Positions 7,274-48,363 of a DNA stretch of 58,251 nt are shown piece by piece. The notes beneath the pieces were generated by a model that was not told where the DNA came from, searched no databases, and was given only the letters and a program-made list of their open reading frames with translations. Made by a program: the position numbers and the translations under genes. Position 1 is the first letter of the stretch. Every line of letters starts with the position of its first letter. The stretch spans positions 1,559 to 59,809 of the forward strand of contig CAZYZI010000002.1 in assembly GCA_964651915.1 (NCBI GenBank), given 5' to 3'. The DNA is from an uncultured archaeon (GTDB taxonomy: Archaea > Thermoplasmatota > Poseidoniia > MGIII > CG-Epi1).

Positions 7274-7299
7274 GTTTTTTCCAATTAGAATAGGTGGTA

Positions 7300-8561: not shown

Positions 8562-8637
8562 AATTACCTATGAGGGGGGGACAAAAGTGTATTTGGCCAA
8601 CATATTATTTTAATTAGTAGCATGAGAGCAGGCAATT

Positions 8638-10398: not shown

Positions 10399-10433
10399 AG
10401 ATTAAATTTAATTGAGGGGTTCAATAGCCATCC

Positions 10434-14071: not shown

Positions 14072-14077
14072 CTAAAT

Positions 14078-20198: not shown

Positions 20199-21446
20199 TT
20201 ATATCTGAGGAGTAATCATAGATGTTGCAATACCTGTAAGTTCAAAGATAAACCATCCTAATAGTAGAAGGAAAGAAGCTCGACTGAATGCTGAATAAAG
20301 TCTGCCAGTAGACATGAAACCTGCTGCAAGACCATTACCTATACCCTGAACCATCAAACTGTAAAGAAACATAGTTGAAATCCAAACTTCGTTCATCTCT
20401 CTAATTGTCAAGTTACCGATAGACATGCTACCTCCTCCTGTTGTTGCTGAAGAATCAACAATTGCTGGAATGAAAGTACTAGCTAAAACTAAAATAATAC
20501 CTAAATAAACAAAGAAAGAAGCATAGATAACTGTTACATAACTTCCAACTTCTTGTCTTCTTTCAGTCTCAAGAGCCTTGATTTCTTTAGCATCATATGA
20601 AGCTGCTAAAAGAATATCCGAAATACGACCACCTGCACGGTTTGCTTCGTCAACCATCCTAACTGCACGTGTTACAATTGGAGAAGTAACCCGTTCTGTA
20701 AACATCTCCAAAACTTCACCGAAAGAAACACCCCACGAAATTTGTGAAGCCATTTTGTTTACTTCATCATTAAGGTTACCATATTCTCCTTTGGCCAATG
20801 TTTGAATTGCAACGGTCATACTAAGACCACCTTTCCAATATTCAGCTAAATCACGCAAGAAATCGGGGAATTTTTCTTCAACTCGGGCTCTAATTTGGTC
20901 TCTACGGTATCCATAAATTCCATAAGGAAGCATAAGAGCTACAATACCAAAAACAATGTAATCAATTGCTGAAACCTCAGGATAACTACGAATCCATTCA
21001 GTTGCTGCCATTTCGTTTTCTATTCCATCATCATTAAGCAACCTATCTCTTGTTTCATTACTCTTAATCGAAAATAAACCTAATCCAGTAATACATTGGG
21101 CCTGGTCAATTCTACAGTTTTCATATGGAACATTTGGATCTACGGTTTCACCAAAAGTAAAAGAAAATCTACCATCATTCATATTCCAAGGATTATCGAA
21201 TTGTTTATCACCATCACCATCTTCCATCAAAGTAAGAGCATCTGTTTCATGATTTATTTTAGCAAGACCAAAAAAGGACATGGATAAAATTATTGAGATG
21301 AATATAATAATGGCAGGACCCCAATCAGTTGCCTTATCTCTAACTTTTAACCAACGATCGACTTTCCAATATTCCATCCAACGTCTTTTGACACCTGTAC
21401 GACGATCTTTGTAGACCTTCTTCTCTAAACTACCTTTAATACTCAT
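20199..21446 (-). CDS. Type IV filament platform protein (T2SS-F domain, FlaJ/TadC-half) with extracytoplasmic insert
   Basis: FPDFLRDLAEYWKGGLSMTVAIQTLA...VTSPIVTRAVRMVDEANRAGGRISDILLAAS T2SS-F pattern plus C-terminal TM helices. An N-terminal TM and a loop of about 100 aa precede it. Confidence 0.85.
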   Translation of the reverse strand: MSIKGSLEKKVYKDRRTGVKRRWMEYWKVDRWLKVRDKATDWGPAIIIFISIILSMSFFGLAKINHETDALTLMEDGDGDKQFDNPWNMNDGRFSFTFGETVDPNVPYENCRIDQAQCITGLGLFSIKSNETRDRLLNDDGIENEMAATEWIRSYPEVSAIDYIVFGIVALMLPYGIYGYRRDQIRARVEEKFPDFLRDLAEYWKGGLSMTVAIQTLAKGEYGNLNDEVNKMASQISWGVSFGEVLEMFTERVTSPIVTRAVRMVDEANRAGGRISDILLAASYDAKEIKALETERRQEVGSYVTVIYASFFVYLGIILVLASTFIPAIVDSSATTGGGSMSIGNLTIREMNEVWISTMFLYSLMVQGIGNGLAAGFMSTGRLYSAFSRASFLLLLGWFIFELTGIATSMITPQI

Positions 21447-22402
21447 TAATCAGTAGAGACCTCCTGACTCAATGAAAAGAATAAACCGGAAAATATTATC
21501 TGAATAACAGGAAAACCGCCAAAAACTAAAAGGTACATATGGATTTCCTCAAGTTGCATACCTGCTCCTGAAACCCAGAACGTAATAACTGCAATAATCA
21601 TAGCGAAAATAGGCAAAGCAACTGCAACAACCACATATGCTTCTGAGAAAAGCGCCATTTGCTGAAGAACATCTTTTACATGAACTCTATTCTGTTGAGC
21701 ATAATATTCTGATCTATTCAAGAAGTATAATTTCAAATTACCTCCAGAAGTCACAGTTCCAATAATTCCTTGAATAAATTCTGCAAATCTTTCAGAAGGA
21801 GTACGATCTACTGCTTCTTTTAATGTTGTAACTAAATCTCTCCCCATAAATTCCATACTATGATAAATCCAAGCTGAATCTACGGCAATTTCCCCATAAA
21901 TATCCTCATTTCTTGCAAGTGATTTGAACGTCTGTGTAGGTGTAGCATTTGCTGCAGCCATAGCCGAAACATAACTAGCCGCAAACGGAAGTTGCCGATC
22001 CATACTTGTTGCTCGACTGCTTTCCAAGAGTGCAGGAGTTAACCATTGAATTAAAGCTATCAAAAGTGGAATTACTAAGCACAAAAAGGCTGCAATTATA
22101 AGTTCAACTGTTCGAGAAACTTCTAATGTTTCGCCTTCTTCACCACCTGCCTTAGGTAATGTTTCAATAACGTCAGGAATTAAAAAACCAGATATACCTA
22201 ATACCAGTAAAACGCCAACAATAAAAGCTGTGACAACCTGCATTACTGAAACTGCAACGTAATCTGCTGCTAAGAGTGGAATCCGTGCTTTAACTAATTG
22301 ATTTCTTAAGCCAACTGAATCTTTAGTCAAAAGTCGGCCTAACCAACCGAAAAGAACCCTACTAAATGTTTCAAAACCGCTCAGAGCCATTTGTGCCACC
22401 AA
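21446..22402 (-). CDS. Type IV filament platform protein (T2SS-F domain, FlaJ/TadB-half)
   Basis: LPFAASYVSAMAAANATPTQTFKSLA...FAEFIQGIIGTVTSGGNLKLYF T2SS-F pattern plus TM helices. The likely true start is the ATG at 22390. Confidence 0.8.
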   Translation of the reverse strand: MVAQMALSGFETFSRVLFGWLGRLLTKDSVGLRNQLVKARIPLLAADYVAVSVMQVVTAFIVGVLLVLGISGFLIPDVIETLPKAGGEEGETLEVSRTVELIIAAFLCLVIPLLIALIQWLTPALLESSRATSMDRQLPFAASYVSAMAAANATPTQTFKSLARNEDIYGEIAVDSAWIYHSMEFMGRDLVTTLKEAVDRTPSERFAEFIQGIIGTVTSGGNLKLYFLNRSEYYAQQNRVHVKDVLQQMALFSEAYVVVAVALPIFAMIIAVITFWVSGAGMQLEEIHMYLLVFGGFPVIQIIFSGLFFSLSQEVSTD

Positions 22403-24609
22403 CGTGGATTAGCGGAACGTTGTACTCTGTTAGCTAAACTTGATTTTAGGCTTACCATGGCCTTGCTTACACGGGTTTCTTCAGCTTCAACAGCTTTAGA
22501 TCGTTTCTCATCTACAAGTTTTTCAATATTAGCCGTCGCCTTTGCCCTTTTGTTAAGTTCAGCATGAACATTCTTCAACATTCTTCGGCCTTCAACCTCA
22601 TTAAGTGAGGATACGTCTCCCAAATCAATTTCCTTAGCTAAAGGTGTTAACTGCTTAATTGGTACATAATATGCTTGATCTTTTAATAATGCGTTTTGAA
22701 GATTCATTTCCTCTTTTTCTCTTCGTACTTCTTCGTTAGCAATCAATTTGGATCTCTTAGTTGGATCGTCTGTTGATGATATTTTAGCATCATTTTTCGC
22801 TCGAGTTGCTTGCTCTTTAGCTTCGCGCTTTTGGTACTTTTGTCTCACTTTAGGTGGGAAATCTCCAACATCGACGTCTTCATCATCACTAGATAAATCC
22901 ATGTCACGATCTGCTACTTTACGGCGGCGTTTCTTACCACCAACTTGCATATCCTCGTAAACTTGTCTCATTACATCTTCAGGATGTACATAATACTCAG
23001 CTACAACACGTGCAAAATCTTTGTAATCTCTAATTCCTTTCTTTAAACACCATTCAATAACTAATTGTCTTCTTTTGGTTTCATCCATTATCTCAACGCG
23101 ATTGAGATTAGCTTTCATCATAATTTTTTCAAATATATACGATTTGCCTGTGAAAACATATTCATCAATAGTATTATCCCACCTAAATGCCTCATTAGTC
23201 AATAATTCATGTGAATGTGGATCAATACCAATAATTTCCACAATTGCTTTATTTCTCCTTACACGTTTACCGCCTACACGTGTCTGAATTTGAATTGAAA
23301 TACCATCTAATGCTGGAATTAATACACGCGGAATTTCAATTGGTTTATTCTCGAGACGGTGAACTAAACTCTGAATTGAATCTGCGTGGAAAGTAGAATA
23401 TGTTGTGTGTCCCGTTGCCATAGCCTGGAAAAGAACATAAGCTTCTGCACCTCGAATTTCTCCGACAATAATGTATTCAGGACGTTCTCGAAGAGCTGCT
23501 CTCAATAAATCATACATGTCAACTTCTCCAGCAGCTTTACCGCCGGTAGCACTGCCTTCACCACCAAAACCTTGTCTTGTACAACCTGGAATCCAATTTG
23601 GATGTGGTAAATTCAACTCACGTGTTTCCTCAATGCTAACAATTTTATGTTGCCATGGAAGGAAAAGAGAACATGCGTTCAATGATGTTGTTTTGCCTGA
23701 TGCCGTTCCTCCGACAAAAAGCATTGACATTCCATACTGCATTGCTAACCAAAAGAAAGCAATTTGCATAGAAGAGAATGTCTTAAATTCAAGTAAATCT
23801 ACAGGAGTAAAAGGTTCATCTCTGAAACGCCGTATCGTAAATGTTGACCCTTTAGTTGATACCTCTCGACCAAGAGTCATAACTATACGAGAACCATCCA
23901 TTAATGTTGCATCCAAAAGAGGTTCTGCAATAGAAATATGTTTTCCACAACGTTGAGCCATACGAATAATGTAATTTTCTAATTCATGTTCATCTTCCCA
24001 CATGACATTCGTTCTCAAAGATTCAAAACGTCTATGATAAACGAAAATTTCTACACCAGGGCCATCACAAGAAACATCCTCAATATTTGGATCTCTCATC
24101 ATGGTATCTATTTTACCATAACCAATCAAATCTCTTTCAATAAAATAATGTATTTTTGCACGATTACTCTTACGAGATTTTAATCTATATGAATCTAGAA
24201 TATCATCAACTGCTTGCTTAAGAAAATCTTCTTGAGTTTCATCAAGAGTATCACGATCTATGTTAAGAGCGCGCTGAAGAACTGATTGAATTGTATCTAA
24301 ATCTTCTTGCTCTTGCTTAGTTGCTTTAGGTTCAACGACATAATAAAATCTTGAATAATCTCTTTTATCAAACAAAACTCTTACATATGAAAATGGAGGG
24401 TAAACAGGATAAGTATCTAACTCTTCGAAATCTTCTCCGATTTCAATATCATCCATAACTAAATCGTGAATGACGCCTGCTTTCTCGGCTGCAGCGCGTT
24501 GTTTTCGAAGTTTGCGACGTTGTAACCAAGAGAGTTTTGATTCATCGATTTCTTGCTCTTCACCGAGTAAACTTGAACCTGCGTCTAAGGTTTCTTTTGA
24601 TGCACTCAT
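22381..24609 (-). CDS. FlaI/PilB-like type IV filament ATPase with long N- and C-terminal extensions (742 aa)
   Basis: Walker A GGTASGKTTSLNA, RPEYIIVGEIRGAEA, His box TGHTTYSTFHAD. The C-terminal region of about 190 aa is K/R/E/D-rich low complexity. Confidence 0.9.
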   Translation of the reverse strand: MSASKETLDAGSSLLGEEQEIDESKLSWLQRRKLRKQRAAAEKAGVIHDLVMDDIEIGEDFEELDTYPVYPPFSYVRVLFDKRDYSRFYYVVEPKATKQEQEDLDTIQSVLQRALNIDRDTLDETQEDFLKQAVDDILDSYRLKSRKSNRAKIHYFIERDLIGYGKIDTMMRDPNIEDVSCDGPGVEIFVYHRRFESLRTNVMWEDEHELENYIIRMAQRCGKHISIAEPLLDATLMDGSRIVMTLGREVSTKGSTFTIRRFRDEPFTPVDLLEFKTFSSMQIAFFWLAMQYGMSMLFVGGTASGKTTSLNACSLFLPWQHKIVSIEETRELNLPHPNWIPGCTRQGFGGEGSATGGKAAGEVDMYDLLRAALRERPEYIIVGEIRGAEAYVLFQAMATGHTTYSTFHADSIQSLVHRLENKPIEIPRVLIPALDGISIQIQTRVGGKRVRRNKAIVEIIGIDPHSHELLTNEAFRWDNTIDEYVFTGKSYIFEKIMMKANLNRVEIMDETKRRQLVIEWCLKKGIRDYKDFARVVAEYYVHPEDVMRQVYEDMQVGGKKRRRKVADRDMDLSSDDEDVDVGDFPPKVRQKYQKREAKEQATRAKNDAKISSTDDPTKRSKLIANEEVRREKEEMNLQNALLKDQAYYVPIKQLTPLAKEIDLGDVSSLNEVEGRRMLKNVHAELNKRAKATANIEKLVDEKRSKAVEAEETRVSKAMVSLKSSLANRVQRSANPRWWHKWL

Positions 24610-29997: not shown

Positions 29998-30134
29998 ATT
30001 ATAGCAAAAAGATGATATATTAAGGGTATACCTTTGCTTAAAAAAAAGTCATTTCCATTGCATATTTTTATATAGCAGATACCATCCTCTTGAAACACCT
30101 ATTATGGGGGCGTGATTTGTCTATACCTGACAAC

Positions 30135-30806
30135 ATGAATTACAGTCTGATGGCATTGCTGATTGTAACGGCACTACTAGTTGGCAAAAGTGCCCAAGGA
30201 TTTCCTAATGGAGGAGTAAGTGGTGGTGACGAATGGGCCGAAGATTCTATTGCACATGGGTGCTCATGCCACATGGATGAACAACTTAACGAAGGGATGT
30301 ATAATTTAAATGGAATTCCTGATAAATACGAACCTGAAAATACATATAATATTTCATTTGCTATTGCTGATGAAAATGTAGAAATGGCAGAAGATGCTTC
30401 TAGATATGGAGGGTTCTTAGCTGAAGTTAGTGAAGGAACCTTCGTAACAAATGAAAATTATTGGGTTGGGGGTGAAGGCTCTTACATCTCTCACAATGAT
30501 AACAGCAATGATGTAAGAAATTGGACATTTGAATGGACAGCTCCTGCAGATGGTACCGGTGATGCTATTTTCATAATATATTTCAACGTAGTTAATGGTC
30601 AAGGAACTAACGGAGACCAATGGAATTACTTGACTGCAGTTTCTCTTGGAACTCCGCAAGCTTCATCACATGAAATTTCAATACATGAACTTGGTGTAAC
30701 GCTGATGCAATACTGGATTGGATTAATGGGGATTGGAGTAGTTCTTTTATCTGTTCTGATTTCATACGTAGTAATGAGAGGAGGTAGTTCACATTACCGA
30801 GGTTAA
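30135..30806 (+). CDS. Secreted, C-terminally TM-anchored protein with HGCSCHM metal/heme-ligand-rich motif
   Basis: ATG 30135 gives the signal peptide MNYSLMALLIVTALLVGKSAQG (the ORF track starts at TTG 30090). FEWTAPADGTGDAIFIIYF beta-sandwich-like pattern. C-terminal TM plus basic tail. First gene of the Rieske/cyt b operon. Confidence 0.7.
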   Translation: MNYSLMALLIVTALLVGKSAQGFPNGGVSGGDEWAEDSIAHGCSCHMDEQLNEGMYNLNGIPDKYEPENTYNISFAIADENVEMAEDASRYGGFLAEVSEGTFVTNENYWVGGEGSYISHNDNSNDVRNWTFEWTAPADGTGDAIFIIYFNVVNGQGTNGDQWNYLTAVSLGTPQASSHEISIHELGVTLMQYWIGLMGIGVVLLSVLISYVVMRGGSSHYRG

Positions 30807-30957: not shown

Positions 30958-31158
30958 TTGCTTCTTGAATTAATGTATGATTCACTATTTATTTACGGAA
31001 TTATGGAAGGGTGGGACCAACCATTCTTGTCATTTATACTTGCTATGGCATTTTTGATTTTAGGGCTTATGCTCGATTTTTATAGAAGATCATTCATGCC
31101 TGATGTTCTTGAAACAAAGAAAAGAAGGAGGAAAGTTATCACAAAACTTGAACGTTAA
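30958..31158 (+). CDS. Small two-TM membrane protein (true start possibly upstream at 30793)
   Basis: TTG start in the track. The same frame is open and protein-like for 60 codons further upstream (see finding). Ends 2 nt before the Rieske gene. Confidence 0.55.
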   Translation: MLLELMYDSLFIYGIMEGWDQPFLSFILAMAFLILGLMLDFYRRSFMPDVLETKKRRRKVITKLER

Positions 31159-31160
31159 AT

Positions 31161-31838
31161 ATGAATATTACACGTAGAGGGTTCCTTCAAGGTGCAATTG
31201 GATTGGCTGGTGCTGGAATGACTGGAGCTCTAACTGTGCCTGCACTGAAAACTTTGTTGCCACCTCCAGTTACAAGATGTAACAAGGATGATGCACATGA
31301 AACTTTGACCTTCAAAGCAGAAGCTGGAAAATGGTATGAAAATAAAGGAAATGATGTAGCTAAAGTGTCGGATTTTGAAAATTTATGGGACGTTGCAATT
31401 GTCAATTGGGGTCCTTCTGACTTAGAAGAAGAGTTGGGTGTTTGTGAAATTCAGTTAGCTCTAGCAAGAGTTCCAACCGAAGATGGGATGGAGGGATTAG
31501 GTGTTAGTGTAGGTGATGGCAATTCAATGATAATGGCTTATCATACCTACAAATGTCCTCATTTATGCTGTAAACCAGTCTATACTGATGCTGGAACTAG
31601 TACAATTAGTGGAAAAGACTACGAAAATATGTTCTTGTGTCCATGCCATTTGTCTTTATTTGATCCAATTTCTATAATAAAAAATATAGATGAACAGGGC
31701 AGAGAAGTTATGGCTGCTGAATTATTAGAAGGACCTGCCCCTTATGGGCTACCAGTAGTACCTGTAGCTGAAAAAAATGGAGAATTGATAGGCCTAACTA
31801 CAAACATAGATTGGCTAAAATATTGCGGACAAGGTTGA
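31161..31838 (+). CDS. Rieske [2Fe-2S] protein, TAT-exported
   Basis: Twin-arginine signal MNITRRGFLQGAIGLAGAG. Cluster boxes CPHLCC and CPCHLSLF. Confidence 0.88.
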   Translation: MNITRRGFLQGAIGLAGAGMTGALTVPALKTLLPPPVTRCNKDDAHETLTFKAEAGKWYENKGNDVAKVSDFENLWDVAIVNWGPSDLEEELGVCEIQLALARVPTEDGMEGLGVSVGDGNSMIMAYHTYKCPHLCCKPVYTDAGTSTISGKDYENMFLCPCHLSLFDPISIIKNIDEQGREVMAAELLEGPAPYGLPVVPVAEKNGELIGLTTNIDWLKYCGQG

Positions 31839-31842
31839 TATT

Positions 31843-32805
31843 GTGAAGATTAACAAAATTATTATGATGGTTATAGGGTGTTTAGCCTTTTTCTCTTTGT
31901 CAGCTAGTGCTGAAACTCCACTTTTAGAAGAATTGATGAGAAAATATACTTTCCCATTCATTTTTCTTCAACTATTAATGGCTGTATTAACCGTAGGATA
32001 TCTATACGTGACTGGGTTGCTTCCAAAGGTAATCTTTGAAGCTTGGAAATGGGTTGATGAGAGGTTTGCACTACATAGATACATTTCCATGGCTAAAAGA
32101 GAATATTATTCTGTTGTATACACTATTTTACCTGCAACTGGAAGAACAATGCCACAATCGCACACTGAACGGTATAATGTCAAAGCTGTTTGGTATTGGT
32201 ATCCATTTTATTCATTGGGTGGTCTATCTTTCTTTGCTTATATTGTATTAACAATCACTGGAATTTATTTAGGATTTTATTATGTTCCTGATGGTGAATT
32301 TGTAAATGAAGATGGAGGACCTTGTGGTACTGGACACTGTACTTCTGGAGCTTACCAATCAATGGAATTAATTATGACTCAAGTAACATTTGGATACATT
32401 ATTCGGGCTGTACATCATTGGTCAGCTCACTTCATGGTTGCTTCAGTATTTCTTCACATGATGAGAGTTTATTTCATTGGAGCTTATAGAAATCCAAGAG
32501 AAGTTAATTGGATACTAGGATCCATTTTACTAATGGTAACTATATTTTTTGGTTATACTGGATATCTCTTGCCATGGGATGAACTTGGTTTTGCAGCAGG
32601 TTCAATTGGTCTTGAAATGGCAACTTCTATACCTGCAATGGGGCCATTAATGGCTCAAATAGTATTTGGCGGTACACAACTTACTGGAGATACAATTACT
32701 CGAATGTATTGGTTACACATTTTTGTACTTCCTTTGATAGGTACTGTTTTGATCATAATACACATGGCACTTGTATGGATACAAGGGGAGGCTGAACCTC
32801 ATTAG
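31843..32805 (+). CDS. Cytochrome b, N-terminal (b6-like) subunit
   Basis: GTG start. RAVHHWSAHFMVASVFLHMMR (H-x13-H) and WLHIFVLPLIGTVLIIIH (H-x14-H) heme ligand pairs. GYTGYLLPWDE motif. Confidence 0.9.
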   Translation: MKINKIIMMVIGCLAFFSLSASAETPLLEELMRKYTFPFIFLQLLMAVLTVGYLYVTGLLPKVIFEAWKWVDERFALHRYISMAKREYYSVVYTILPATGRTMPQSHTERYNVKAVWYWYPFYSLGGLSFFAYIVLTITGIYLGFYYVPDGEFVNEDGGPCGTGHCTSGAYQSMELIMTQVTFGYIIRAVHHWSAHFMVASVFLHMMRVYFIGAYRNPREVNWILGSILLMVTIFFGYTGYLLPWDELGFAAGSIGLEMATSIPAMGPLMAQIVFGGTQLTGDTITRMYWLHIFVLPLIGTVLIIIHMALVWIQGEAEPH

Positions 32806-33864
32806 ATGGGCGAAGACGATGATGCAATTGAAATGATTTATGAGCATCAAGATGAGCAAGTTGCACTTGATACGATAAATAAATTAGAAAATAGAGAGGA
32901 TCATTCTGTTCTCGAAGCCGACATGGTAAAAGGTGAACCCTTATATCCTCATGAATTAACCCGAGACGCAGTTCTTTCTTTGTACATTATGGCTTTATTT
33001 TTCTATTTAGCCGCTTTTGTACCTCCACCACTTCATGGTGCTGCAGATCCAACTGCAGGTACTGCATTCCCTCCACCTTTACCTGATTGGTATTTACTTT
33101 GGGCTTTTGGTTGTTTGAAAGTAGCTTGGGATATTAAAATTGGAATACCTCTCTCAATGATTCCATTTTTAGGTTTAGAAGATATTGAACTTTTCTTAAT
33201 GACTGCAAAAGTTTGGGGTACCTTAGTCCAAGGTTTGATTGTTGGATTAGTAGTTGGTGTACCCTTCATAGATAGAGCAATTGGATTCTTAATTGATCCA
33301 CAATATGGAGATGTTGTTAATAGAGGACATGAGCGGCGTCCAATCGAAGATCCTGTGAGGGCTGCAATTGGAGTATATGGTCTCGCATTAATGGTAATGT
33401 TATCTGTATATTCGATAAATGCTAACATTGCAATATATTATCCTGACATAACAACTGATATACTTAACCAACTAACTCTTTGGGGGCCTTTTGCTTGTGC
33501 ACTTATTACATTTGTTTTTCTGGATAGAAGAAGATCTGAAGGTGCTAAACCACTTACTGATGAAGAACGTTTCAGTCTATATGTAGATGGAATTAAAGAT
33601 CGAAGAATGCAACGAATATATGAATTCAAATTGAATCGTTGTTATCAATGTGGACTTTGTGATGATATTTGCCCAGTAAGAGATATGGAAGGTGAACACG
33701 AATTAAATATTATTTTTAATACATTCCAAAATGAACACGATGGTGTGGCTATGTGGTCATGCATTACATGTGGAATGTGTACTGCTGTTTGTCCGCAAAA
33801 CATTGAATACATTGATTATGTTTTAGAACAAAGAGCACTTACCACATCTGGAGCTTCAATATGA
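32806..33864 (+). CDS. Cytochrome b C-terminal (subunit IV-like) fused to 2x[4Fe-4S] ferredoxin (HdrC-like) domain
   Basis: Qo-site PDWY motif (PLPDWYLLWAF), four TM helices and a DRRRSEG positive patch. Then CYQCGLCDDICP and CITCGMCTAVCP. The start ATG immediately follows the cyt b stop. Confidence 0.85.
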   Translation: MGEDDDAIEMIYEHQDEQVALDTINKLENREDHSVLEADMVKGEPLYPHELTRDAVLSLYIMALFFYLAAFVPPPLHGAADPTAGTAFPPPLPDWYLLWAFGCLKVAWDIKIGIPLSMIPFLGLEDIELFLMTAKVWGTLVQGLIVGLVVGVPFIDRAIGFLIDPQYGDVVNRGHERRPIEDPVRAAIGVYGLALMVMLSVYSINANIAIYYPDITTDILNQLTLWGPFACALITFVFLDRRRSEGAKPLTDEERFSLYVDGIKDRRMQRIYEFKLNRCYQCGLCDDICPVRDMEGEHELNIIFNTFQNEHDGVAMWSCITCGMCTAVCPQNIEYIDYVLEQRALTTSGASI

Positions 33865-34748
33865 GCCGAACAAAACCCTACGCACGAACCATCCCGCATC
33901 CACTCTTCGAAAGGTTAATTGTCGAAGATGCAATGAATGAAGACAAAGAGTCTTGGAAACCTGAAAGACCGCACGAATATGGTTATTTTCCAGGATGTGT
34001 TGACTTTATGGATGTTGAAGTTAAATTTACTCATTTAAACAAAGGTGATGCGGATCATGCCTCTATAGCTGCAGCATCAATAAAATTATTGAATTATGCG
34101 AATATTGATCCCCTTATATTGGATATGAATATATTCAAATGTTCAGGACATGATCAATTATGGCAAGGACAATTAGAAGTATTTGATTCTTTGAAAGAAC
34201 ACAATATGAGAAGACTTAAAGAATCTGGAATTAAAATTATAACATGTTCATGTGCCGAATGCTATCGTACATTTGCTGTGGATTATGACCTTCCGGGTAC
34301 ATTAGGAATAAAAGTTGAACACATTACTCAAACTCTACAAGGGCGCGGATTGAAATTTAAAGCTCCTGAAGATGTAACTGTGGCTTACCATGATCCTTGT
34401 CGTTTAGGAAGAATGATGGGTGAATACGAAGCTCCAAGAGATTTGATAAATCTTGTAGATGGCGCTACCATGGTAGAGTTAGAGAATAACAAAGAACGAG
34501 CATTATGCTGTGGTGTTTCATCCATGATGTACTGTAATGACGCTACCAAAGCGGTTCGCAGAAAAAGATTAGACCAAGGAACTGATGCTGGAATTGATTT
34601 GATGCTAGGTGGGTGTCCTAAATGTTACATGCATATGCAATGTATGTTAAATGAAGAAAGAATGAATCCAGAAGAAAGTCACCACCATGACTATGAAATG
34701 ATGGATTTGATGCAATTCTTAGTTGCTTGCTTAGAGGAAGAAAAGTAG
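33861..34748 (+). CDS. CCG-domain Fe-S protein (HdrB/GlpC-like, two cysteine-rich CCG repeats)
   Basis: YFPGCVDFMD...KCSGHD...CSCAECY and YHDPCRLGR...LCCGVS...GGCPKCYMHMQC. ATGA overlap with the upstream gene. Confidence 0.85.
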   Translation: MSRTKPYARTIPHPLFERLIVEDAMNEDKESWKPERPHEYGYFPGCVDFMDVEVKFTHLNKGDADHASIAAASIKLLNYANIDPLILDMNIFKCSGHDQLWQGQLEVFDSLKEHNMRRLKESGIKIITCSCAECYRTFAVDYDLPGTLGIKVEHITQTLQGRGLKFKAPEDVTVAYHDPCRLGRMMGEYEAPRDLINLVDGATMVELENNKERALCCGVSSMMYCNDATKAVRRKRLDQGTDAGIDLMLGGCPKCYMHMQCMLNEERMNPEESHHHDYEMMDLMQFLVACLEEEK

Positions 34749-35737
34749 TGGCTGAAACAGATATTTCTGCATTTGTCTCGGAAGGAGATAGAAATCTCAA
34801 TATTTTATTTGGATCGCAAAGTGGAAATTCGGAAGGTCTTGCTGAAACTTGGGAACAAGAAGCTCCGCGGTATGGGCTCAAAGCAAAAGTTCACGACATG
34901 GATGGATTTGATATCAAATCAATGGCTAAGATGTCAAGAGTCATGATTGTTTGTTCAACATGGGGTGAAGGTGAAATGCCAGATAATGCCGAAGAGTTGT
35001 ATGAAGAGGCTAAAACTGCGGGTAAAATTTTATCTAAAACAAATTTTTCAATTTGCGCTCTTGGAGATACAGGATATGATTTATTCTGTCAATCTGGAAA
35101 AGATTGGGATAAGACGCTTGAAGAAATGGGCGGTTCAAGAATCCATGACCGTGTGGATTGTGATGTAGATTATGAAATGCCTGCTGAAAAATGGATGAAA
35201 GGTACAATGTCTAAGCTGGCCTGTGTGGATGGAGATGGAAAATTTCTCCCAGATTTAGTAGATGATATCGTTGCTTATGCCTCCGGTGTTGAACTTGAAA
35301 CACCAGAAGCTGAAGTGGAAGAACCTGTGGGAGGCACTACCGCTTACCAAGCTATGACTACGATTTCACTTTTCTTTCACAAACCCAACAAATGGCTCAA
35401 AAGAGTCAAAAATGTTCTTGATGAAGATGATTTACCAACAACTGGTATCGAAAAAGCAAAAGATATGTTCAAGGAATTGAGAAAAATTACTTTGAAGGCT
35501 TTGCCACAAGGTAAGGACTACATTGCGCTGGTAGATAATGAAAAATGTATCGGTTGTACTCAATGTGTTTATTATTGCAATTTTGCCTCAATAGACATGA
35601 TTTCTTGGGATTTAAATGCGAGAACATCACAATTTGAATCTAAGAAAGCTCTTGTTTTAGATGATACATGTGTCGGTTGTACTTTGTGTGCTTTTGCTTG
35701 CCCTGTAGAAGCAATAACTATGGAAAGTAAAGTTTAG
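34748..35737 (+). CDS. Flavodoxin-like FMN domain fused to 2x[4Fe-4S] ferredoxin domain
   Basis: ILFGSQSGNSEGLAE and ICALGDTGYDLFCQSG flavodoxin motifs. C-terminal CIGCTQCVYYCN and CVGCTLCAFACPVEA. The GTG at 34748 overlaps the upstream TAG by 1 nt; the track start 34727 is an alternative. Confidence 0.85.
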   Translation: MAETDISAFVSEGDRNLNILFGSQSGNSEGLAETWEQEAPRYGLKAKVHDMDGFDIKSMAKMSRVMIVCSTWGEGEMPDNAEELYEEAKTAGKILSKTNFSICALGDTGYDLFCQSGKDWDKTLEEMGGSRIHDRVDCDVDYEMPAEKWMKGTMSKLACVDGDGKFLPDLVDDIVAYASGVELETPEAEVEEPVGGTTAYQAMTTISLFFHKPNKWLKRVKNVLDEDDLPTTGIEKAKDMFKELRKITLKALPQGKDYIALVDNEKCIGCTQCVYYCNFASIDMISWDLNARTSQFESKKALVLDDTCVGCTLCAFACPVEAITMESKV

Positions 35738-35747: not shown

Positions 35748-36251
35748 ATGGATTTGTACAAATCAATCATTGCAGCAATATGGCTTTGTGTTGTTTATGC
35801 AATATGGGCTGCGACAGAAGCCGGGGATCCAGGATATGGACAAGCTTCATTTTTAGCTGGTGGAATTTTAGCTCATTTTTATCTAAGGAAAAGAAAATTA
35901 GAAAGGCCAAGGACTGATAGTAAAATTGCAATTCCTGAAGCTAATTTCTCTGTTGAAATACCTGATGAAGGTGACAAGTACTATTTTAGTGAAAATAGCT
36001 ATAGAAAAATCATATGGCTTAGTACTATTTTTTCATTAATTTCAATTAGTATCTTTATAGAAACTGTAACATATCAACAAGATTATTTAACTTGGGGAAT
36101 TATCGCATTAATATTTGGAACTGTAGTATTCTTAATTCCTATATTTTTACCTGTTAAAGATGATATTGAAACTTTAAAGAAAAGAGCTGAAAAAGAAAGA
36201 ACAAAGGCTTGGCATAAAGGTAAATTTGACCAGCCCATTGAGGAAGAGTGA
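35748..36251 (+). CDS. Membrane protein (4 TM) with charged C-terminal tail
   Basis: Hydrophobic helices. Follows the flavodoxin gene by 10 nt, and its stop overlaps the cca GTG start. Confidence 0.6.
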   Translation: MDLYKSIIAAIWLCVVYAIWAATEAGDPGYGQASFLAGGILAHFYLRKRKLERPRTDSKIAIPEANFSVEIPDEGDKYYFSENSYRKIIWLSTIFSLISISIFIETVTYQQDYLTWGIIALIFGTVVFLIPIFLPVKDDIETLKKRAEKERTKAWHKGKFDQPIEEE

Positions 36252-37509: not shown

Positions 37510-38013
37510 CTATGCTTGTAGACTTATATCGTAACCGATTGTGTCGCCATTAGGCGTGAACTTCAAACGGAATGCGTAATCAGTTACATCATTAACTGAA
37601 GACAATTCCGAATCTGCTTCACCTGGGTGAACTTCAAACTTGTCACCTGGGCTCAACCTACCGTTGAAGTCGTTGTCAATGAAAATGACTGCTTTACCTT
37701 GGCCTTCATAATATCCATAGATATCAGAAACTATGCCTGTGGTTGCAGTATTTCCTTCTTCATCCAGTAAATACCATGCTACTGAATTTACGGAAACTTG
37801 GGGATTGATCTTGACAATCTGAATTGTCCAATCACCTTGACCGTCTTCGCTTGCTATCATACTGCCGGTTGGTGCGTTCTTGGTTGTACCACCAAGGAAA
37901 CTGCTAGCCCAAACGTACAATACTGCAGCCAGAACGACTGTAATAGCTACCATTAAAATAACAGCAATTACAGGTGAAACTGCCTGCTCATCGTTTACTA
38001 TTCTTCGTTTCAT
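37510..38013 (-). CDS. Archaeal type IV pilin (Pilin_N domain), paralogue 1
   Basis: MKRRIVNDEQAVSPVIAVILMVAITVVLAAVLYVW class III-type signal/helix with a beta-rich C-domain. It is a paralogue of 38090-38587. Confidence 0.88.
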   Translation of the reverse strand: MKRRIVNDEQAVSPVIAVILMVAITVVLAAVLYVWASSFLGGTTKNAPTGSMIASEDGQGDWTIQIVKINPQVSVNSVAWYLLDEEGNTATTGIVSDIYGYYEGQGKAVIFIDNDFNGRLSPGDKFEVHPGEADSELSSVNDVTDYAFRLKFTPNGDTIGYDISLQA

Positions 38014-38078
38014 TGTTGTGTCCTCTGACCGAAGTCAGACTATGGGACTACTGGGATAGCATATATACCTTACGTCAA
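38014..38078 (-). promoter_or_regulatory. Conserved pilin promoter/leader: TATATAT box plus 5' UUCG-loop hairpin plus GAGGA SD
   Basis: The 24-nt block gatagcatatataccttacgtcaa (38055-38078) is identical to 38628-38651. Hairpin TCTGAC-CGAA-GTCAGA at 38024-38039 (UUCG loop on the coding strand). Confidence 0.6.
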
Positions 38079-38089
38079 TTTTAACTTAA

Positions 38090-38587
38090 TTAACTGTTAA
38101 AGTCAACGTCGTAACCGATTGTGTCACCGGTTGGATCGAATTTTATACGGAATGAAAAATCATCCAATGACGACATGTCTGCCAAGGTAGTTCCTTCACC
38201 AGGATAAAATCTAAAAATATCTCCTGGACTAACTTTAGCATTATAATCATTATCAATGTAAATTATAGACTGACCTTCACCTGATTTGTAACCATAAATG
38301 TCAGTAACTACACCTTCAGCTTTGGTAAGACCTTGAATATCCATCAAATACCAGTGTACTGAATTAATGGAAGCTTGAGGATTCATTTTAATTATTTGAA
38401 CATCCCAAACACCACTACCATCTTCACTAGCCATCATACTACCTGTTGGTGAATTCTTTGGTTGTAATCCCCATCCAGATACCCAAGCGTAAAGAACAGC
38501 TGCCATAACGACAGTTATAGCTACCATTAAGATAACTGCAATTACCGGAGATACGGCTTCTTCATTGTTAACAAATCTGCGTTTCAT
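38090..38587 (-). CDS. Archaeal type IV pilin (Pilin_N domain), paralogue 2
   Basis: MKRRFVNNEEAVSPVIAVILMVAITVVMAAVLYAW. Collinear with paralogue 1 over its full length. Confidence 0.88.
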   Translation of the reverse strand: MKRRFVNNEEAVSPVIAVILMVAITVVMAAVLYAWVSGWGLQPKNSPTGSMMASEDGSGVWDVQIIKMNPQASINSVHWYLMDIQGLTKAEGVVTDIYGYKSGEGQSIIYIDNDYNAKVSPGDIFRFYPGEGTTLADMSSLDDFSFRIKFDPTGDTIGYDVDFNS

Positions 38588-43776: not shown

Positions 43777-46700
43777 TTAGTGCGTTCTACGTCTTAGCAT
43801 TCCAACAACACCAAGTGCTGAAATTGCTAATAATAAATTGAAACCTGGTAACAGTCCTTCGTCTTCCAGTTGTTCTAGAATAGATACTGGAAGTACCTGT
43901 TGCCTACAATTTTCTCCACCATCTTCATCTTTTGCACATATTATCAGTGTGAAGGTGTCGCCTTCTGCAAATTTATGTGAAACATTACCGTCTTGTGTAA
44001 TCAATGGAGCTGTTCCATCTCCAAAGTCTATAGTGAAGATAATTGTGTCAGCACCTGGATCTGTAGCTTCAAATTTGAAGTCCAACATTTCTCCTTCCTG
44101 TCCACTACTTGGCATTTGGAATTCTGTGAAAGTTGGCGCTACATTTTCAATCGTTACAACTAAACCTTCCGAAACTCCCCCGCCGTCTTCGTCTTCTGCA
44201 GTAACTCCTATAATAAATTCGCCGTCATCAATGAACAAGTATTGAGCAAAATTTCCTTCGGCTTGTGTTCCATCTGGGAAAGTCCAAGTCACTTTTACCG
44301 TGTCCTCAGGGACATCAAATGTTTGTGCATTGAAAGATAGGGTCTGTCCTTCTTGACCGAAATCATCGTAAGACACTTGCAAAGTTGGAGGTGCATTCTC
44401 AACATTCAATTCAAATTCTTTGGTTGTTATCACCGTTCCATCTGATACTGAAACTATTATTGTGTAAATTCCATCATCTGGATATCCATACCTTACAGAA
44501 TCGTCTTCTATGAGATTTCCATTGCCCATGTCCCAACTGTACTCTAGGTCATCATCGTCTGCATCGAATGCATCTACCTCAAAATTAAACATCTCTCCTT
44601 CGAATACTCTATCTGTGTTGAGGTCTCCGATTTCTGGAGCGTGATTCAGAACAATTTCAGCTTCAAACTCTACCATGTCTTCCATGTTCCAATATTCATC
44701 GTACATGTAAACGGCAAACAAGTAAGTTCCTTCTTCATCAGCAGTCCATTCAAAATTAATGTCCTCATTCTCTGATGAGGTGATTACTGCGTCTGTATAA
44801 TCTCCATCTATGTAGTCCCAGTCATCATTGCTCTCATTAAAACGAAGAACATCGAAGTAATACTCAGTCCCAATTTCTCCATCATAATTTGTTTGAGGGT
44901 CCAGATTAATACGAACACTGTCACCTTCCTGACTGAATTGATCGATGAACCATTCATCGGACATAATCAATGTGAAGTTGAATTGGTCTTCGTGGTTCCA
45001 TTCATCATCGTATAGATCAACAGTGAACCAATACTTTCCTGGTTCATCAACCTCTAATCCAATTTCAAACCAATCACTATATCCATTGTTTATGGTGTGA
45101 TTTTCGCCTGAATAATCAACGTAATCCCCATTCTCGTCCCAGATAATGGCTTCGACATAGACGTCCATTTCACAGTCACAATCTGTATCAGGATCATATC
45201 CAATGATTACTTTGTTCCATTGGTGCTCATCATTCTCATCAAATGCTCCATAGTAATCCCACTCATAGAACCACTCATCGTAGTCTTCATCGCCGCCGCC
45301 ACCGCTAGTGTCGTCACATCCTACCCAGACTTCGTAGTATCCCTTATCTTCAGGTCCATTATCTGGTGGGCTTGAAGTCCATTCGTACTCACCGCATGTC
45401 TCATTATAGAGCCAAGCTTCTCCTGACTCATTAGTTACCAAACTAGCGTGGTATTCCCAATCATCTGAGGTTTCATTATGCTTAAAGATTTCAATTTCTA
45501 CGTCTGCGACTGAGTCGTCGTCGATCCTGCCTTGGTGAGCAATAAATCCTACATCATCATAGACTGCATACTCATCGTCATCAACTACTGCATTATCCAC
45601 ATTAATTACTGTGAAATCTGATGAATTGCCATATGAGTAGAAAGGACCTTCCTGTAAAATTGCGCCATTTTCTTCGTAATAAACATATTGGTAATACCAT
45701 CCTTCAGTCAAATTAGAAGAGACAAAAAGAACACCATAGTAATTTGGATTACCACTATCTACTAGATTACCATCCTCATCATAAATTTCGAAATATGCAT
45801 CTTCCTTATATTCATCATCTTCTAAAACTCCACCAATGTAATCATTGACATAGTCGTCTCCATCCCAATCATCGATGACTCCTAGATGTCCAACACCATC
45901 ATCACCACCAGTTCCGCCTCCGCCACCGGCATCAGAGCTTAGGTAGACATCGTAAATCCAGAATAAGTCTTCCTCATTCCAGTCCTCATCATACAGGTAA
46001 ACACCGAAGTCATAGCTACCATTTTCGTAAGCAGTCCATTCCTGCTCGAACCAATCTGAATATCCATTGTTTATATCGTGCTCATCAGCAATAGTGTCTA
46101 CATAATCACCAGTTGCATTATCATAAACGTCCACATACACATAGATTGTTACATTACAATCACAATCAGTATCTGGATCGTAGCCTATTATGATTGTATC
46201 AGAAGGATCAACATCGTAATCCCAATCATAGAACCATTCGTCATAGTCTCCGTCACCGCCTCCACCGCCACTTGAACGGGCATGGAGTTCAATTCCAAGA
46301 TATTCTTCCTCTTCCTCTAAGTTTCCATCCTCATCATACAATTCAACATAGAAATCAAAGGTTCCATTGTATTCAGGTGACCAGTCTTGATACCAGTAAT
46401 CATCATCATCGCTGTAAATGGTATAATCTTCTTCAGTTCCATTTACCCAATAACCTGTTTCATTGTCGTAAACATCGATTACTAATGTTATGTTAATGTC
46501 ACATTCACACGTTGTATCTGGATCATAATCTATCTCGGCTGTGTCATCATATCCATCATCATCAGCATCATAGGTATATGCGTCAATCCAATCAAACCAT
46601 TCATCCTCATCACCTGGGCCACCAGCTCCACTTGTTTGGTACAAATAAACATTGTAGACCCAGAATTCGTCCTCCCAATTCCAGTCATCATCATACATAT

Positions 46701-48363
46701 AGACATAGAAATCGTAAGATTGACTGTCACGGGAAGTCCAAGATTGTTCAAAGTATTCCTCTTCAGTACCGTTAATTGTGTGATAAGCGTACTCATTATC
46801 TACCCAATCGCCTGTTGAATTCTCATAAACCGAAATGGAAACTTCAACGTCTATTTCACAATCACAATCTGTATCTGGATTGTAACTAATAGCTATAGTA
46901 TCATCTAAATTATCTTCATCATTATCTTCGGTTTCGTAATCCCAATCTTCAAACCATTCATCGCTGTCGCAACCATCTGAATTATTGTTATCGTCATCAC
47001 ACTCAAGATAAACTGTAAAATTGAAGTGATCCTCGTAATTGTAGTTTTCATCATATAGATAAAATTCGATAGTGTAATTGCCGTTCTTGCTTGGTGACCA
47101 TTCATCGGTTTCGAAAGAATCGACCTCAGTACCACTTATATTGTGAGAATAATAATCGCCACTTTCATAATTTCCTGTGTCATTGTTGTATGCTGAAAAA
47201 TCAACATCAATATCGATTGTACAGTTACACTCGGTGTTTGGATCATATTTGATAATTATACTGTTAGCTACACCATCACCGTTTGTATCGTTAGTCTCAT
47301 ATCCCCAATCCTCGAACCATTCATCATAATTGGTACTAGTACTTCCAAATGAATGTAACCATCCACTCTGTAATAATTCACCATCTTCTTCATAATAGAA
47401 ATCAAAGGTATAGTTGCCTTTCTCGACGTCATCTAACAAATAGATATCATAGCCATAATAGTCATGATCTGTGTTACCTGAATCATACAAATCTCCGTCT
47501 TCATCGTAGATCTCTATGTAGGCATCATCTTTAGTTTCATCACCCTCAAAGACATATGCGAGAAAATCATCGTAATCATCAGCACCATCCCAATCTTCTA
47601 CACTCACTTGATGACTGAGATTATTTACTGTATCTACTTCAGTATAGGAGACGGTTTCTTCTTCTAAATCTGTACCGTTATCTGATGCCGTCCAACGGTA
47701 CTCTCCACTGCTTGCATTCTTAACTGTATATTCGCCATGATAATCGGTTGTTCCATTCGCGTAGTATGACCAAATTAAACCATTGAAAAATTCTACACTT
47801 ATTTCGACGTCCTTTATGCCATCATCTTCGTTGCTCGCGATAAAAACAATATCATTGTTAACTGAGTCTTCATCCTCTGCCCAAACAAGATTATCAACAT
47901 TGATTGTATCGTCAGATGCTGGAGGAGACCCTGTCATTGCTGATAACTCAACATCAGTTACACTCCAATTATCTTCTAAATTATTCCATTCATCATACAT
48001 TTCTACATAAAAATCGAAAGTTCCATCGTAATCAGGAGTCCAATCTTGGCTAAACTCATCCCATTCTCCATTGTTTATAGTGTGTTCATCGTAAATATAT
48101 TCCACATATCCATCCTCATCGTAAATATCGACGTAAACTGTTATGTCGATATCACAGTCACAATCTGTATCTGGATCATATACTATGTAGATAGTATCAT
48201 CCGACCCGTCGGCGTCCTCGTCGGATACCTCCTCATATATATCGTAAAACCATTCATCATCTGCCTCGTCGGCAACGGCTGTAGGAATTACGCTCAATAC
48301 TAGGGTGAACATTAGGGCCCATGCTAGGACCTTCTGACCTGTCTGTGGATTAATAAAATACAT
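43777..48363 (-). CDS. Giant (1528 aa) extremely acidic secreted surface protein: about 7 DPDTDCDC repeat modules, 3 PKD-like domains, PGF-CTERM anchor
   Basis: Signal peptide ...LVLSVIPTAVA/DE. Repeated about 105-aa modules (DEWF..W.Y....I.I.YDPDTDCDC.I.V...YD....H.ING...F...W.P...G.Y.F.V.LYDE..N.ED). PKD-like WDMGNG / FPDGT / DFGDGT domains. C-terminal LLPGFNLLLAISALGVVGMLRRR. Confidence 0.9.
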   Translation of the reverse strand: MYFINPQTGQKVLAWALMFTLVLSVIPTAVADEADDEWFYDIYEEVSDEDADGSDDTIYIVYDPDTDCDCDIDITVYVDIYDEDGYVEYIYDEHTINNGEWDEFSQDWTPDYDGTFDFYVEMYDEWNNLEDNWSVTDVELSAMTGSPPASDDTINVDNLVWAEDEDSVNNDIVFIASNEDDGIKDVEISVEFFNGLIWSYYANGTTDYHGEYTVKNASSGEYRWTASDNGTDLEEETVSYTEVDTVNNLSHQVSVEDWDGADDYDDFLAYVFEGDETKDDAYIEIYDEDGDLYDSGNTDHDYYGYDIYLLDDVEKGNYTFDFYYEEDGELLQSGWLHSFGSTSTNYDEWFEDWGYETNDTNGDGVANSIIIKYDPNTECNCTIDIDVDFSAYNNDTGNYESGDYYSHNISGTEVDSFETDEWSPSKNGNYTIEFYLYDENYNYEDHFNFTVYLECDDDNNNSDGCDSDEWFEDWDYETEDNDEDNLDDTIAISYNPDTDCDCEIDVEVSISVYENSTGDWVDNEYAYHTINGTEEEYFEQSWTSRDSQSYDFYVYMYDDDWNWEDEFWVYNVYLYQTSGAGGPGDEDEWFDWIDAYTYDADDDGYDDTAEIDYDPDTTCECDINITLVIDVYDNETGYWVNGTEEDYTIYSDDDDYWYQDWSPEYNGTFDFYVELYDEDGNLEEEEEYLGIELHARSSGGGGGDGDYDEWFYDWDYDVDPSDTIIIGYDPDTDCDCNVTIYVYVDVYDNATGDYVDTIADEHDINNGYSDWFEQEWTAYENGSYDFGVYLYDEDWNEEDLFWIYDVYLSSDAGGGGGTGGDDGVGHLGVIDDWDGDDYVNDYIGGVLEDDEYKEDAYFEIYDEDGNLVDSGNPNYYGVLFVSSNLTEGWYYQYVYYEENGAILQEGPFYSYGNSSDFTVINVDNAVVDDDEYAVYDDVGFIAHQGRIDDDSVADVEIEIFKHNETSDDWEYHASLVTNESGEAWLYNETCGEYEWTSSPPDNGPEDKGYYEVWVGCDDTSGGGGDEDYDEWFYEWDYYGAFDENDEHQWNKVIIGYDPDTDCDCEMDVYVEAIIWDENGDYVDYSGENHTINNGYSDWFEIGLEVDEPGKYWFTVDLYDDEWNHEDQFNFTLIMSDEWFIDQFSQEGDSVRINLDPQTNYDGEIGTEYYFDVLRFNESNDDWDYIDGDYTDAVITSSENEDINFEWTADEEGTYLFAVYMYDEYWNMEDMVEFEAEIVLNHAPEIGDLNTDRVFEGEMFNFEVDAFDADDDDLEYSWDMGNGNLIEDDSVRYGYPDDGIYTIIVSVSDGTVITTKEFELNVENAPPTLQVSYDDFGQEGQTLSFNAQTFDVPEDTVKVTWTFPDGTQAEGNFAQYLFIDDGEFIIGVTAEDEDGGGVSEGLVVTIENVAPTFTEFQMPSSGQEGEMLDFKFEATDPGADTIIFTIDFGDGTAPLITQDGNVSHKFAEGDTFTLIICAKDEDGGENCRQQVLPVSILEQLEDEGLLPGFNLLLAISALGVVGMLRRRTH

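Follow-up and report, generated by a model that had tools for sequence, protein, structure and literature searches.

In cytochrome b6f and in the Rieske/cytochrome b complexes of Bacillus and Heliobacterium, cytochrome b is split after helix D into two polypeptides, and the C-terminal pieces, PetD and QcrC respectively, carry the P[ED]WY loop of the quinol oxidation (Qo) site; in QcrC this piece (subunit IV) is fused to a cytochrome c. We describe here a gene of related design (positions 32806-33864, + strand) in a 58,251-nucleotide stretch of DNA, hereafter the window, from an uncultured archaeon of Marine Group III (MGIII; GTDB lineage Poseidoniia, MGIII, CG-Epi1; GenBank assembly GCA_964651915.1, contig CAZYZI010000002.1, positions 1,559 to 59,809 of the forward strand). 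Its product shares the split and the loop with PetD and QcrC and, as in QcrC, ends in a redox domain. Unlike theirs, its membrane part has four helices (E-H) instead of three, by which the C-terminus would be brought back to the cytoplasm, and the attached domain is a 2x[4Fe-4S] ferredoxin predicted at the negative (n) side of the membrane, whereas that of QcrC is a haem c domain at the positive (p) side. The window cytochrome b also differs from that of b6f in lacking the cysteine of haem cn, and its operon has no c-type cytochrome.

In sulfate reducers, QmoC and DsrMK combine a membrane cytochrome b with HdrC/HdrD-like iron-sulfur modules and link the quinone pool to cytoplasmic redox enzymes; their cytochromes are of the NarI/HdrE type, with neither a Rieske protein nor a Qo site, unlike the complex discussed here. 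Mycobacterial EtfD (Rv0338c; PDB 9OJN) and the heterodisulfide reductase (Hdr) HdrDE of methanogens join a membrane haem protein, two cubane clusters and two CCG clusters in the same order as the window operon, and in EtfD the wire leads from the electron-transferring flavoprotein (ETF) through clusters D1, D2, D3 and D4 to haem b and menaquinone (PMC13083937). A difference lies in the membrane partner, which in the window is the cytochrome b of a Rieske/cytochrome b complex (Qo site, two haems, Rieske protein) and not a cytochrome of the NarI/HdrE type. Furthermore, the window CCG polypeptide lacks the N-terminal five-helix single-haem domain of EtfD, and the partner to which the window iron-sulfur domain is fused is instead the C-terminal part of cytochrome b, which is haem-free.

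The only published fusion of cytochrome b to an iron-sulfur domain that we found, and thus the nearest prior art, is the 'PDWF-FeS' clade of Kao and Hunte (2014), which consists of three bacterial full-length cytochromes b fused to a 4Fe-4S domain, with no Rieske gene in the cluster and with fusions that also include MvhD, or ferredoxin/flavin reductase domains (PMC4122944). The archaeal family has in common with it a cytochrome b with a Qo motif and a fused 4Fe-4S domain, but is distinguished by the motif PDWY, the split cytochrome b, the CCG domains and the presence of a Rieske gene, which the window shares with five of six scanned distant clusters. Electron exchange at the n-side has been proposed for the Rieske/cytochrome b complexes of anammox bacteria, with cytoplasmic carriers (PMC12954380), and for the cyclic flow into b6f that depends on ferredoxin or ferredoxin:NADP+ reductase, with stromal carriers (PMC5600118); there the partners are separate or transient, namely FAD/NAD-binding proteins or haem cn, whereas here the iron-sulfur link is covalent and is extended by CCG clusters.

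For Marine Group II (MGII) archaea, a cytochrome b and a Rieske protein have been reported together with an orphan 'RnfB' and no canonical bc1 complex (PMC6336850), and a literature search of incomplete coverage returned no description of an archaeal fusion of cytochrome b with an iron-sulfur domain. What we report is a combination of known modules, a Rieske/cytochrome b complex and an HdrD/EtfD-type arm, of which no description was found and which is widespread in abundant archaea of the ocean. Our preferred interpretation, to which we assign a probability of roughly 0.45, is that the seven-gene operon around the fusion encodes a complex III with a built-in cytoplasmic iron-sulfur arm, through which electrons would enter the complex.

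Domain structure and membrane topology of the fusion protein

The open reading frame of the fusion is uninterrupted from the ATG at 32806 to the TGA at 33862-33864 and encodes 352 amino acids. An earlier note on this DNA, made from the sequence alone, had assigned the N-terminal two thirds of the product to the C-terminal/subunit IV part of cytochrome b, and both the QcrB profile of NCBIfam (positions 231-387, E 2.3e-6) and the structural comparison agreed. The membrane part (32806-33522) was delimited by profile, PDB, Foldseek, hydropathy and AlphaFold2 evidence. A model built on an alignment of 10 MGIII sequences was unusable (predicted local distance difference test, pLDDT, 42.6), and the addition of 39 remote relatives yielded a pLDDT of 80.9; the top eight Foldseek matches of the resulting model were all actinobacterial QcrB, from the III2IV2 supercomplexes of Corynebacterium and Mycobacterium (probability 1.0, ~229 aligned columns). 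Sequence matches in the PDB were weak and comprised QcrB (9wcx_i, E 9.5e-4) and mitochondrial cytochrome b, while three remote members of the family (P0136, a compact type of 543 amino acids, P0125 and P0124) scored above the gathering threshold of Pfam PF00032. Because the window protein has diverged in its membrane part beyond the reach of Pfam, the identity of this part as cytochrome b was established through NCBIfam, the PDB, Foldseek and these remote relatives.

The four hydrophobic helices and the PDWY motif read earlier from the translation were both recovered. Hydropathy placed the helices at residues 53-77, 129-164, 183-211 and 219-240, the AlphaFold2 model at residues 48-71, 134-163, 183-211 and 217-246, and the consensus at residues 48-76, 134-163, 183-211 and 217-239, which by homology are helices E (32947-33033), F (33205-33294), G (33352-33438) and H (33454-33522). 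PDWY (residues 93-96, nucleotides 33082-33093) lies in the outside loop after helix E, is invariant in the MGIII orthologues and was present in 18 of the 18 remote relatives that cover the region; as a Qo motif it is tied to menaquinol and low-potential Rieske proteins (PMC4122944). Helix E is preceded by the n-side motif GEPLYPHE..RD, whose general form PxxPHExxRD was equally conserved in fused and unfused relatives, and the quinone reduction (Qi) site is probably retained, as far as the sequence indicates.

Downstream of helix H, a cytoplasmic linker delimited by conservation (33523-33639; DRRRSEGAK...YEFKLNR, with the basic patch DRRRSEGAK at residues 240-248) leads to the first cluster motif. 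Lysine and arginine were enriched in the F-G loop and directly after helix H and sparse in both outside loops, and helix E begins at the cytoplasmic side; four helices together with this distribution of charges place the iron-sulfur domain in the cytoplasm, with which the absence of an export signal is in keeping. The cytoplasmic C-terminus next to the basic patch, as proposed in the earlier note, is accordingly what hydropathy, charge distribution and the structural model all predict.

The 2x[4Fe-4S] domain (33640-33864; Pfam, PDB and Foldseek evidence) contains two exact CxxCxxCxxxCP motifs, CYQCGLCDDICP (residues 279-290, nucleotides 33640-33675) and CITCGMCTAVCP (residues 319-330, nucleotides 33760-33795), with a C-terminal helix between the latter and the stop codon; both had been noted before, the first with coordinates displaced by one base (33641-33676). 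Residues 275-333 matched several 4Fe-4S dicluster families of Pfam, with Fer4_8 as the best (E 3e-10). Among solved structures the domain matched in sequence HdrC (7bkb_C, E 5e-6), residues 407-437 of EtfD (9ojn_A), the polyferredoxin FwdF and the TYKY subunit of complex I, and in the Foldseek comparison the fusion model matched HdrC (5odc_C) with a probability of 0.97. The domain has the helical dicluster fold of the HdrC/SdhB type, and its description as HdrC-like holds in terms of fold, although the equivalog cut-offs for HdrC were not reached by the fusion protein (TIGR03290, 32.5 bits vs. 160; NF041779, 28 bits vs. 350). The motifs and domains predicted for the protein are far beyond chance.

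Conservation of the fusion in MGIII

Among 37 species-level MGIII loci, the fusion was found in all 35 complete genes, the other two being cut by a contig end, and a database search for the same architecture returned 126 protein clusters from independent metagenomes (62-90% identity), all with a continuous fusion, besides remote relatives that are extended by two CCG domains. Single-cell genomes and long-read metagenome-assembled genomes (MAGs) were among the loci, and every MGIII locus long enough to show it had the whole operon in the same order. That both domains belong to one continuous polypeptide, as first read from the open reading frame, is thereby borne out, and the fusion is not an assembly artefact. 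The supposition that two separate genes were joined in the window by an assembly or sequencing error is extremely improbable, as the same continuous frame recurs in so many independent sequences of different origin and the junction region is highly conserved at the protein level.

All eight cluster cysteines and PDWY were invariant in orthologues of 61-92% identity, and the linker and the iron-sulfur domain were the most conserved parts of the fusion (90-96% identity, compared to 62-86% for the helices), the linker alone being 90% identical across MGIII. A signature YE[FYW]xLNxC is common to the whole remote family, in which the linker measures only ~12 residues; because the first cluster motif follows helix H at this short distance in most relatives, it must sit close to the membrane surface. 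These observations bear on the possibility that the domain does not conduct electrons but holds a soluble enzyme at the membrane as a tether, or regulates complex III as a sensor of redox state or oxygen. A Halobacteria MAG in which the fused iron-sulfur domain occurs in a cluster with no CCG or ferredoxin partner could be explained in this way, but the invariance of the cysteines, the conservation of the domain and its proximity to helix H argue against it, as does the fact that all characterised members of the family of iron-sulfur, CCG and cytochrome b modules are electron wires to a haem; we regard a tether or sensor as very improbable.

Organization of the operon

The seven genes lie tightly packed on one strand, in the order Reeler-like exported protein, DUF7318 protein, Rieske protein with a twin-arginine translocation (Tat) signal, b6-like N-terminal part of cytochrome b, fusion, 2xCCG subunit, and flavodoxin with a 2x[4Fe-4S] domain. 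The Rieske [2Fe-2S] protein (31161-31838, +) has the Tat signal RRGFL and the boxes CPHLCC...CPCH, and its match to the NCBIfam profile Rieske_proteo (E 6.7e-8) was below the family cut-off. The N-terminal part of cytochrome b (31843-32805, +; Pfam Cytochrom_B_N_2, E 1.4e-37) comprises helices A-D and aligned with the b6 chain 1q90_B (E 1.4e-37), with its haem ligands H191, H205, H292 and H307 at the positions of H86, H100, H187 and H202 of b6 and a serine at the position of the haem cn cysteine; it also has an N-terminal extension of 110 amino acids with a signal-like segment and one extra transmembrane helix. In the window this gene and the fusion gene share a reading frame, with one TAG between them (32803-32808). 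Stop-codon read-through as a means of joining the two was considered and rejected, as the frame was shared in none of the 37 related loci.

The first gene of the operon (p238; 30090-30806, +; start codon uncertain) encodes an exported Reeler/'choice-of-anchor V' protein with a C-terminal membrane anchor (NCBIfam NF041895, E 7.5e-21; weak match to Pfam Reeler). A GCxCH motif (C58, C60, H61) and several other residues of this protein were invariant, and the motif was kept in MGIII and in the MGII homologue (L046, 4055-4798). The position of p238 is occupied in related clusters by a gene for a cytochrome c, a multihaem cytochrome c or a cupredoxin-like protein. The operon has no c-type cytochrome subunit, a search for CxxCH across its proteins having found none, and such a subunit is commonly absent from archaeal Rieske/cytochrome b complexes. 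The p238 protein is a candidate acceptor of the Rieske protein that would replace cytochrome c1, and perhaps an undescribed kind of periplasmic electron carrier. It is followed by a small protein with a single transmembrane helix (DUF7318; 30958-31158, +; Pfam PF24002, E 6.5e-12), whose gene was syntenic in all MGIII loci reaching this position and also occurred in two distant clusters (L044 and P0130), and which is a conserved small subunit gene of archaeal Rieske/cytochrome b clusters.

Downstream of the fusion, the gene for the HdrB/EtfD-like 2xCCG subunit (33861-34748, +; Pfam CCG, E 2.8e-18) overlaps the fusion stop with its start (ATGA), indicating translational coupling. The last of the seven genes (34727-35737, +) encodes a flavodoxin, expected to bind flavin mononucleotide, with a C-terminal RnfB-like 2x[4Fe-4S] ferredoxin domain (Pfam Flavodoxin_1, E 2.8e-28, and Fer4_21, E 2.2e-14; NCBIfam rnfB, E 1.5e-10), and its true start may be the GTG at 34748, which overlaps the upstream TAG. 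In approximately half of the MGIII loci the flavodoxin domain is replaced by an additional 2x[4Fe-4S] unit, giving a polyferredoxin of ~280 amino acids (e.g., L013, 7886-8737). This subunit is likely the distal end of the cytoplasmic arm, and its RnfB-like domain probably explains the annotation of an orphan 'RnfB'. A protein with three transmembrane helices and no family match in Pfam (p167; 35748-36251, +) is encoded directly downstream of the operon in all MGIII loci extending that far, with a 4-nucleotide overlap with the gene of the CCA-adding enzyme; whether it is a member of the complex is uncertain.

The CCG subunit and the iron-sulfur arm

Of the two CCG motifs in the window subunit, CCG-1 (33996-34262) is degenerate, with C46, C94-S95-G, C131 and C134 and thus one cysteine lost, while CCG-2 (34398-34625) is complete, with C180, C216-C217, C252 and C255, a pattern that is also that of EtfD. 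The C-S/T-G form of CCG-1 was present in 29 of the 35 MGIII loci, with CCG kept in the six loci of a deep clade. The chemistry of HdrB needs five cysteines in each of two non-cubane clusters. In EtfD the C-T-G variant of the first motif gives a buried, non-catalytic linear [3Fe-4S] cluster, and catalytic clusters of the HdrB type are expected to be oxygen-sensitive (PMC13083937). Among solved structures the subunit matched EtfD best (9ojn_A, E 3.2e-14), compared to E 1e-4 for HdrB; the best NCBIfam profile was that of the thiol:fumarate reductase TfrB (E 1e-25, far below its cut-off), and the scores for all Hdr equivalog profiles of NCBIfam were likewise far below the cut-offs.

An alternative reading takes the iron-sulfur and CCG domains as a true HdrD-type thiol/disulfide oxidoreductase that exchanges electrons between a low-molecular-weight disulfide and the quinone pool, with the cytochrome b of complex III in the place of HdrE. 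The presence of HdrC-type and CCG domains, the TfrB profile, the full CCG-CCG pair in MGII, the deep MGIII clade and several other lineages, and the HdrABC-MvhD genes that accompany one remote relative (P0136) speak for this reading. It is nevertheless improbable, since in the window and in most MGIII loci one of the five needed cysteines is missing, the similarity to HdrB is weak and the Hdr equivalog scores are low, and oxygen-sensitive catalytic clusters would be at odds with the aerobic life of these archaea in the surface ocean. Heterodisulfide reduction thus appears unlikely in the window organism on the motif and the similarity scores, on which the strict heterodisulfide reductase reading was rejected for it, and 'Hdr' as a functional label is probably wrong here: the description of the neighbouring genes as Hdr-like in the earlier note stands for their fold and not for their likely activity.

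From the alignment with EtfD, the cluster predicted to be bound by C279, C282, C285 and C329 of the fusion corresponds to D4, the cluster adjoining the haem. It would thus lie at the membrane within electron-transfer distance of haem bH, and by the same homology with EtfD and HdrDE a single wire would run from the flavodoxin/ferredoxin subunit through the CCG clusters and the 2x[4Fe-4S] domain to haem bH and the quinone at Qi.

Related complexes in other archaea

Remote relatives, retrieved by a profile search of the full library and 30-40% identical, combined the C-terminal part of cytochrome b, 2x[4Fe-4S] and two CCG domains in one polypeptide. In MGII (Poseidoniaceae, Thalassarchaeaceae) the single-polypeptide version measured 917-942 amino acids and was found in 451 clusters, where it was annotated only as 'HdrD' or 'Fe-S oxidoreductase', and single-polypeptide or fused versions also occurred in Thermoplasmata, Geothermarchaeales, a Halobacteria MAG and other lineages. 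Because other archaea have in one polypeptide three parts that are separate or partly fused in the window, joint action on cytochrome b can be expected of the CCG subunit and the fused iron-sulfur domain, and these architectures lend strong support to the earlier suggestion that the Hdr-like neighbours of the fusion gene belong physically to the complex.

A gene for the N-terminal part of cytochrome b adjoined the fusion in every context examined (~9 lineages), and Rieske boxes were confirmed in all but one (L042) of the distant clusters scanned for them. The clusters examined all had one layout, which began with genes for a periplasmic carrier, a small membrane protein, a Rieske-type protein with a Tat signal and the N-terminal part of cytochrome b, and continued after the fusion with a polyferredoxin, a flavodoxin-ferredoxin or HdrC-HdrB-HdrA-MvhD. 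In two loci (L038 and L039; GCA_012974965.1 and GCA_964347835.1, ~5000-13900) the cluster of Rieske, cytochrome b and iron-sulfur/CCG genes began with a multihaem cytochrome c gene and was directly followed by HdrC, HdrB and MvhD genes, with an HdrA of 1010 amino acids between them in L039, a stretch that is gapped in L038; this gene order points to a connection of a flavin-based bifurcating Hdr complex with a Q-cycle enzyme.

In the Halobacteria MAG (L044; GCA_038869515.1, 4425-8329), the cluster consisted of cytochrome c, DUF7318, Rieske, the N-terminal part of cytochrome b and a fusion of its C-terminal part with 2x[4Fe-4S], and contained no CCG or ferredoxin gene; it would represent a minimal form, in which the fused domain would meet a soluble partner directly. 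The triple fusion of MGII (P0278, ~930 amino acids; L046/L047) had a hydrophilic insert of ~260 amino acids, rich in N-x-S/T (residues ~270-527), between helices G and H, which is presumably an extracellular domain.

Direction of electron flow

In the mechanism that we favour, electrons from a low-potential cytoplasmic donor, which is probably ferredoxin in its reduced form or a flavoprotein, for example ETF, would pass through the arm to haem bH and Qi. Menaquinone would there take up an electron supplied by the arm and another that comes from Qo via haems bL and bH. The resulting quinol would be re-oxidised at Qo and its electrons handed to the Rieske protein, the Reeler-like carrier and a terminal oxidase, while with the donor absent the complex would run an ordinary Q cycle. 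Such a scheme would equal the original Q cycle of Mitchell, with centre N served by a dedicated donor, as in the donor-d scheme described previously (PMC5600118), and would be an analogue of the ferredoxin-driven cyclic flow into b6f. Input is favoured because the module is EtfD-like, because a cysteine of CCG-1 was lost in aerobes and because the distal subunit, either flavodoxin-ferredoxin or polyferredoxin, shows the variability expected of an entry module. The retention of an n-side motif common to ordinary complexes points the same way, as it suggests a Qi site that still works, and since these organisms apparently have no other complex III (PMC6336850), this one must still sustain normal respiration.

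The same architecture would also support flow in the opposite direction, in which the low-potential electron from bifurcation at Qo would leave haem bH through the iron-sulfur domain, the CCG clusters and the flavodoxin/ferredoxin subunit to a cytoplasmic acceptor such as ferredoxin, flavodoxin or, via a partner, NAD(P)+, so that complex III, with its high-potential branch to oxygen as the driving force, would also generate low-potential reductant. PDWY implies a low-potential menaquinol (PMC4122944), and the b haems should consequently be negative enough to reduce the iron-sulfur clusters; moreover, HdrDE passes electrons from quinol to the cytoplasm, some relatives cluster with HdrA and MvhD, and a role in the formation of NAD(P)H has been proposed for anammox Rieske/cytochrome b complexes that have additional redox subunits in the cytoplasm (PMC12954380). 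On the other hand, to return half of the respiratory electrons would be costly for aerobic heterotrophs with apparently a single complex III (PMC6336850), the n-side motif argues for a working Qi, and the operon has no acceptor-specific catalytic subunit. Such an output of electrons is unlikely, if a serious contender. A more specific form of it, a quinol-driven reductant generator in which one electron from Qo would go to oxygen via the Rieske protein and the other via bL and bH into the arm to flavodoxin, ferredoxin or a disulfide, coupled to flavin-based bifurcation in the relatives with HdrA-MvhD, we consider rather unlikely.

Several points weigh against electron input through the arm. 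The distance between the proximal cluster and haem bH is predicted by homology, the direction of flow is a hypothesis, and HdrDE, of the same module family, works from quinol to the cytoplasm. A scan of the window at 13-30 kb and 36-49 kb found no gene for ETF, a 2-oxoacid oxidoreductase or ferredoxin. The window fusion protein had no match to Pfam PF00032 at E<0.01, and His583 of EtfD, a ligand of cluster D2, aligns with Glu133 of the CCG subunit. The two complete CCG motifs of MGII, the deep MGIII clade and other lineages, together with the HdrABC-MvhD genes in the P0136-containing cluster, belong here as well, as a catalytic thiol/disulfide function may be ancestral and persist in these relatives.

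Other genes in the window

In the same flanks (13-30 kb and 36-49 kb), where donor or acceptor genes (ETF, ferredoxin-dependent oxidoreductase, thiol metabolism) were sought, only housekeeping genes were found, among them genes for riboflavin synthesis, CTP synthase, a type IV pilus, a thioredoxin reductase-like protein, ribosomal protein S15 and the CCA-adding enzyme. The riboflavin/FAD genes form a compact cluster (13051-15210, -) of lumazine synthase, riboflavin synthase, 3,4-dihydroxy-2-butanone 4-phosphate (DHBP) synthase and a cytidylyltransferase-like gene that may be an archaeal FAD synthetase. An archaeal type IV pilus/archaellum-like group (20199-24609, -) comprises two PilC/T2SSF-like genes and one PilB-like ATPase of 742 amino acids, and a tandem pair of pilin-like genes with class III signal peptides lies at 37510-38587 (-). 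A protein of 1528 amino acids with PKD domains near its C-terminus (43777-48363, -) is probably a large surface protein.

Implications for marine archaea

Archaea of Marine Groups II and III rank with the most abundant microbes in both surface and deep waters of the ocean. The complex III of these archaea, so far described as cytochrome b and Rieske protein only, carries a covalently attached iron-sulfur arm of the HdrD/EtfD type, and orphan annotations such as 'HdrD/Fe-S oxidoreductase' and 'RnfB' can be reinterpreted as probable subunits of one respiratory machine. The complex provides a natural example of a Q-cycle enzyme with a cytoplasmic redox wire fixed to its n-side, and it allows tests of the Q cycle in Mitchell's original form, where centre N has an external donor, of the input of ferredoxin at Qi that is debated for cytochrome b6f, and of the proposal that membrane-anchored dehydrogenases gave rise to cytochrome bc complexes. 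If electrons flow outward, the arm would be a new route to low-potential reductant in aerobes, and in the case of a quinol-driven reductant generator, the archaea most abundant in the plankton would possess a complex III that makes low-potential reductant in addition to proton-motive force.

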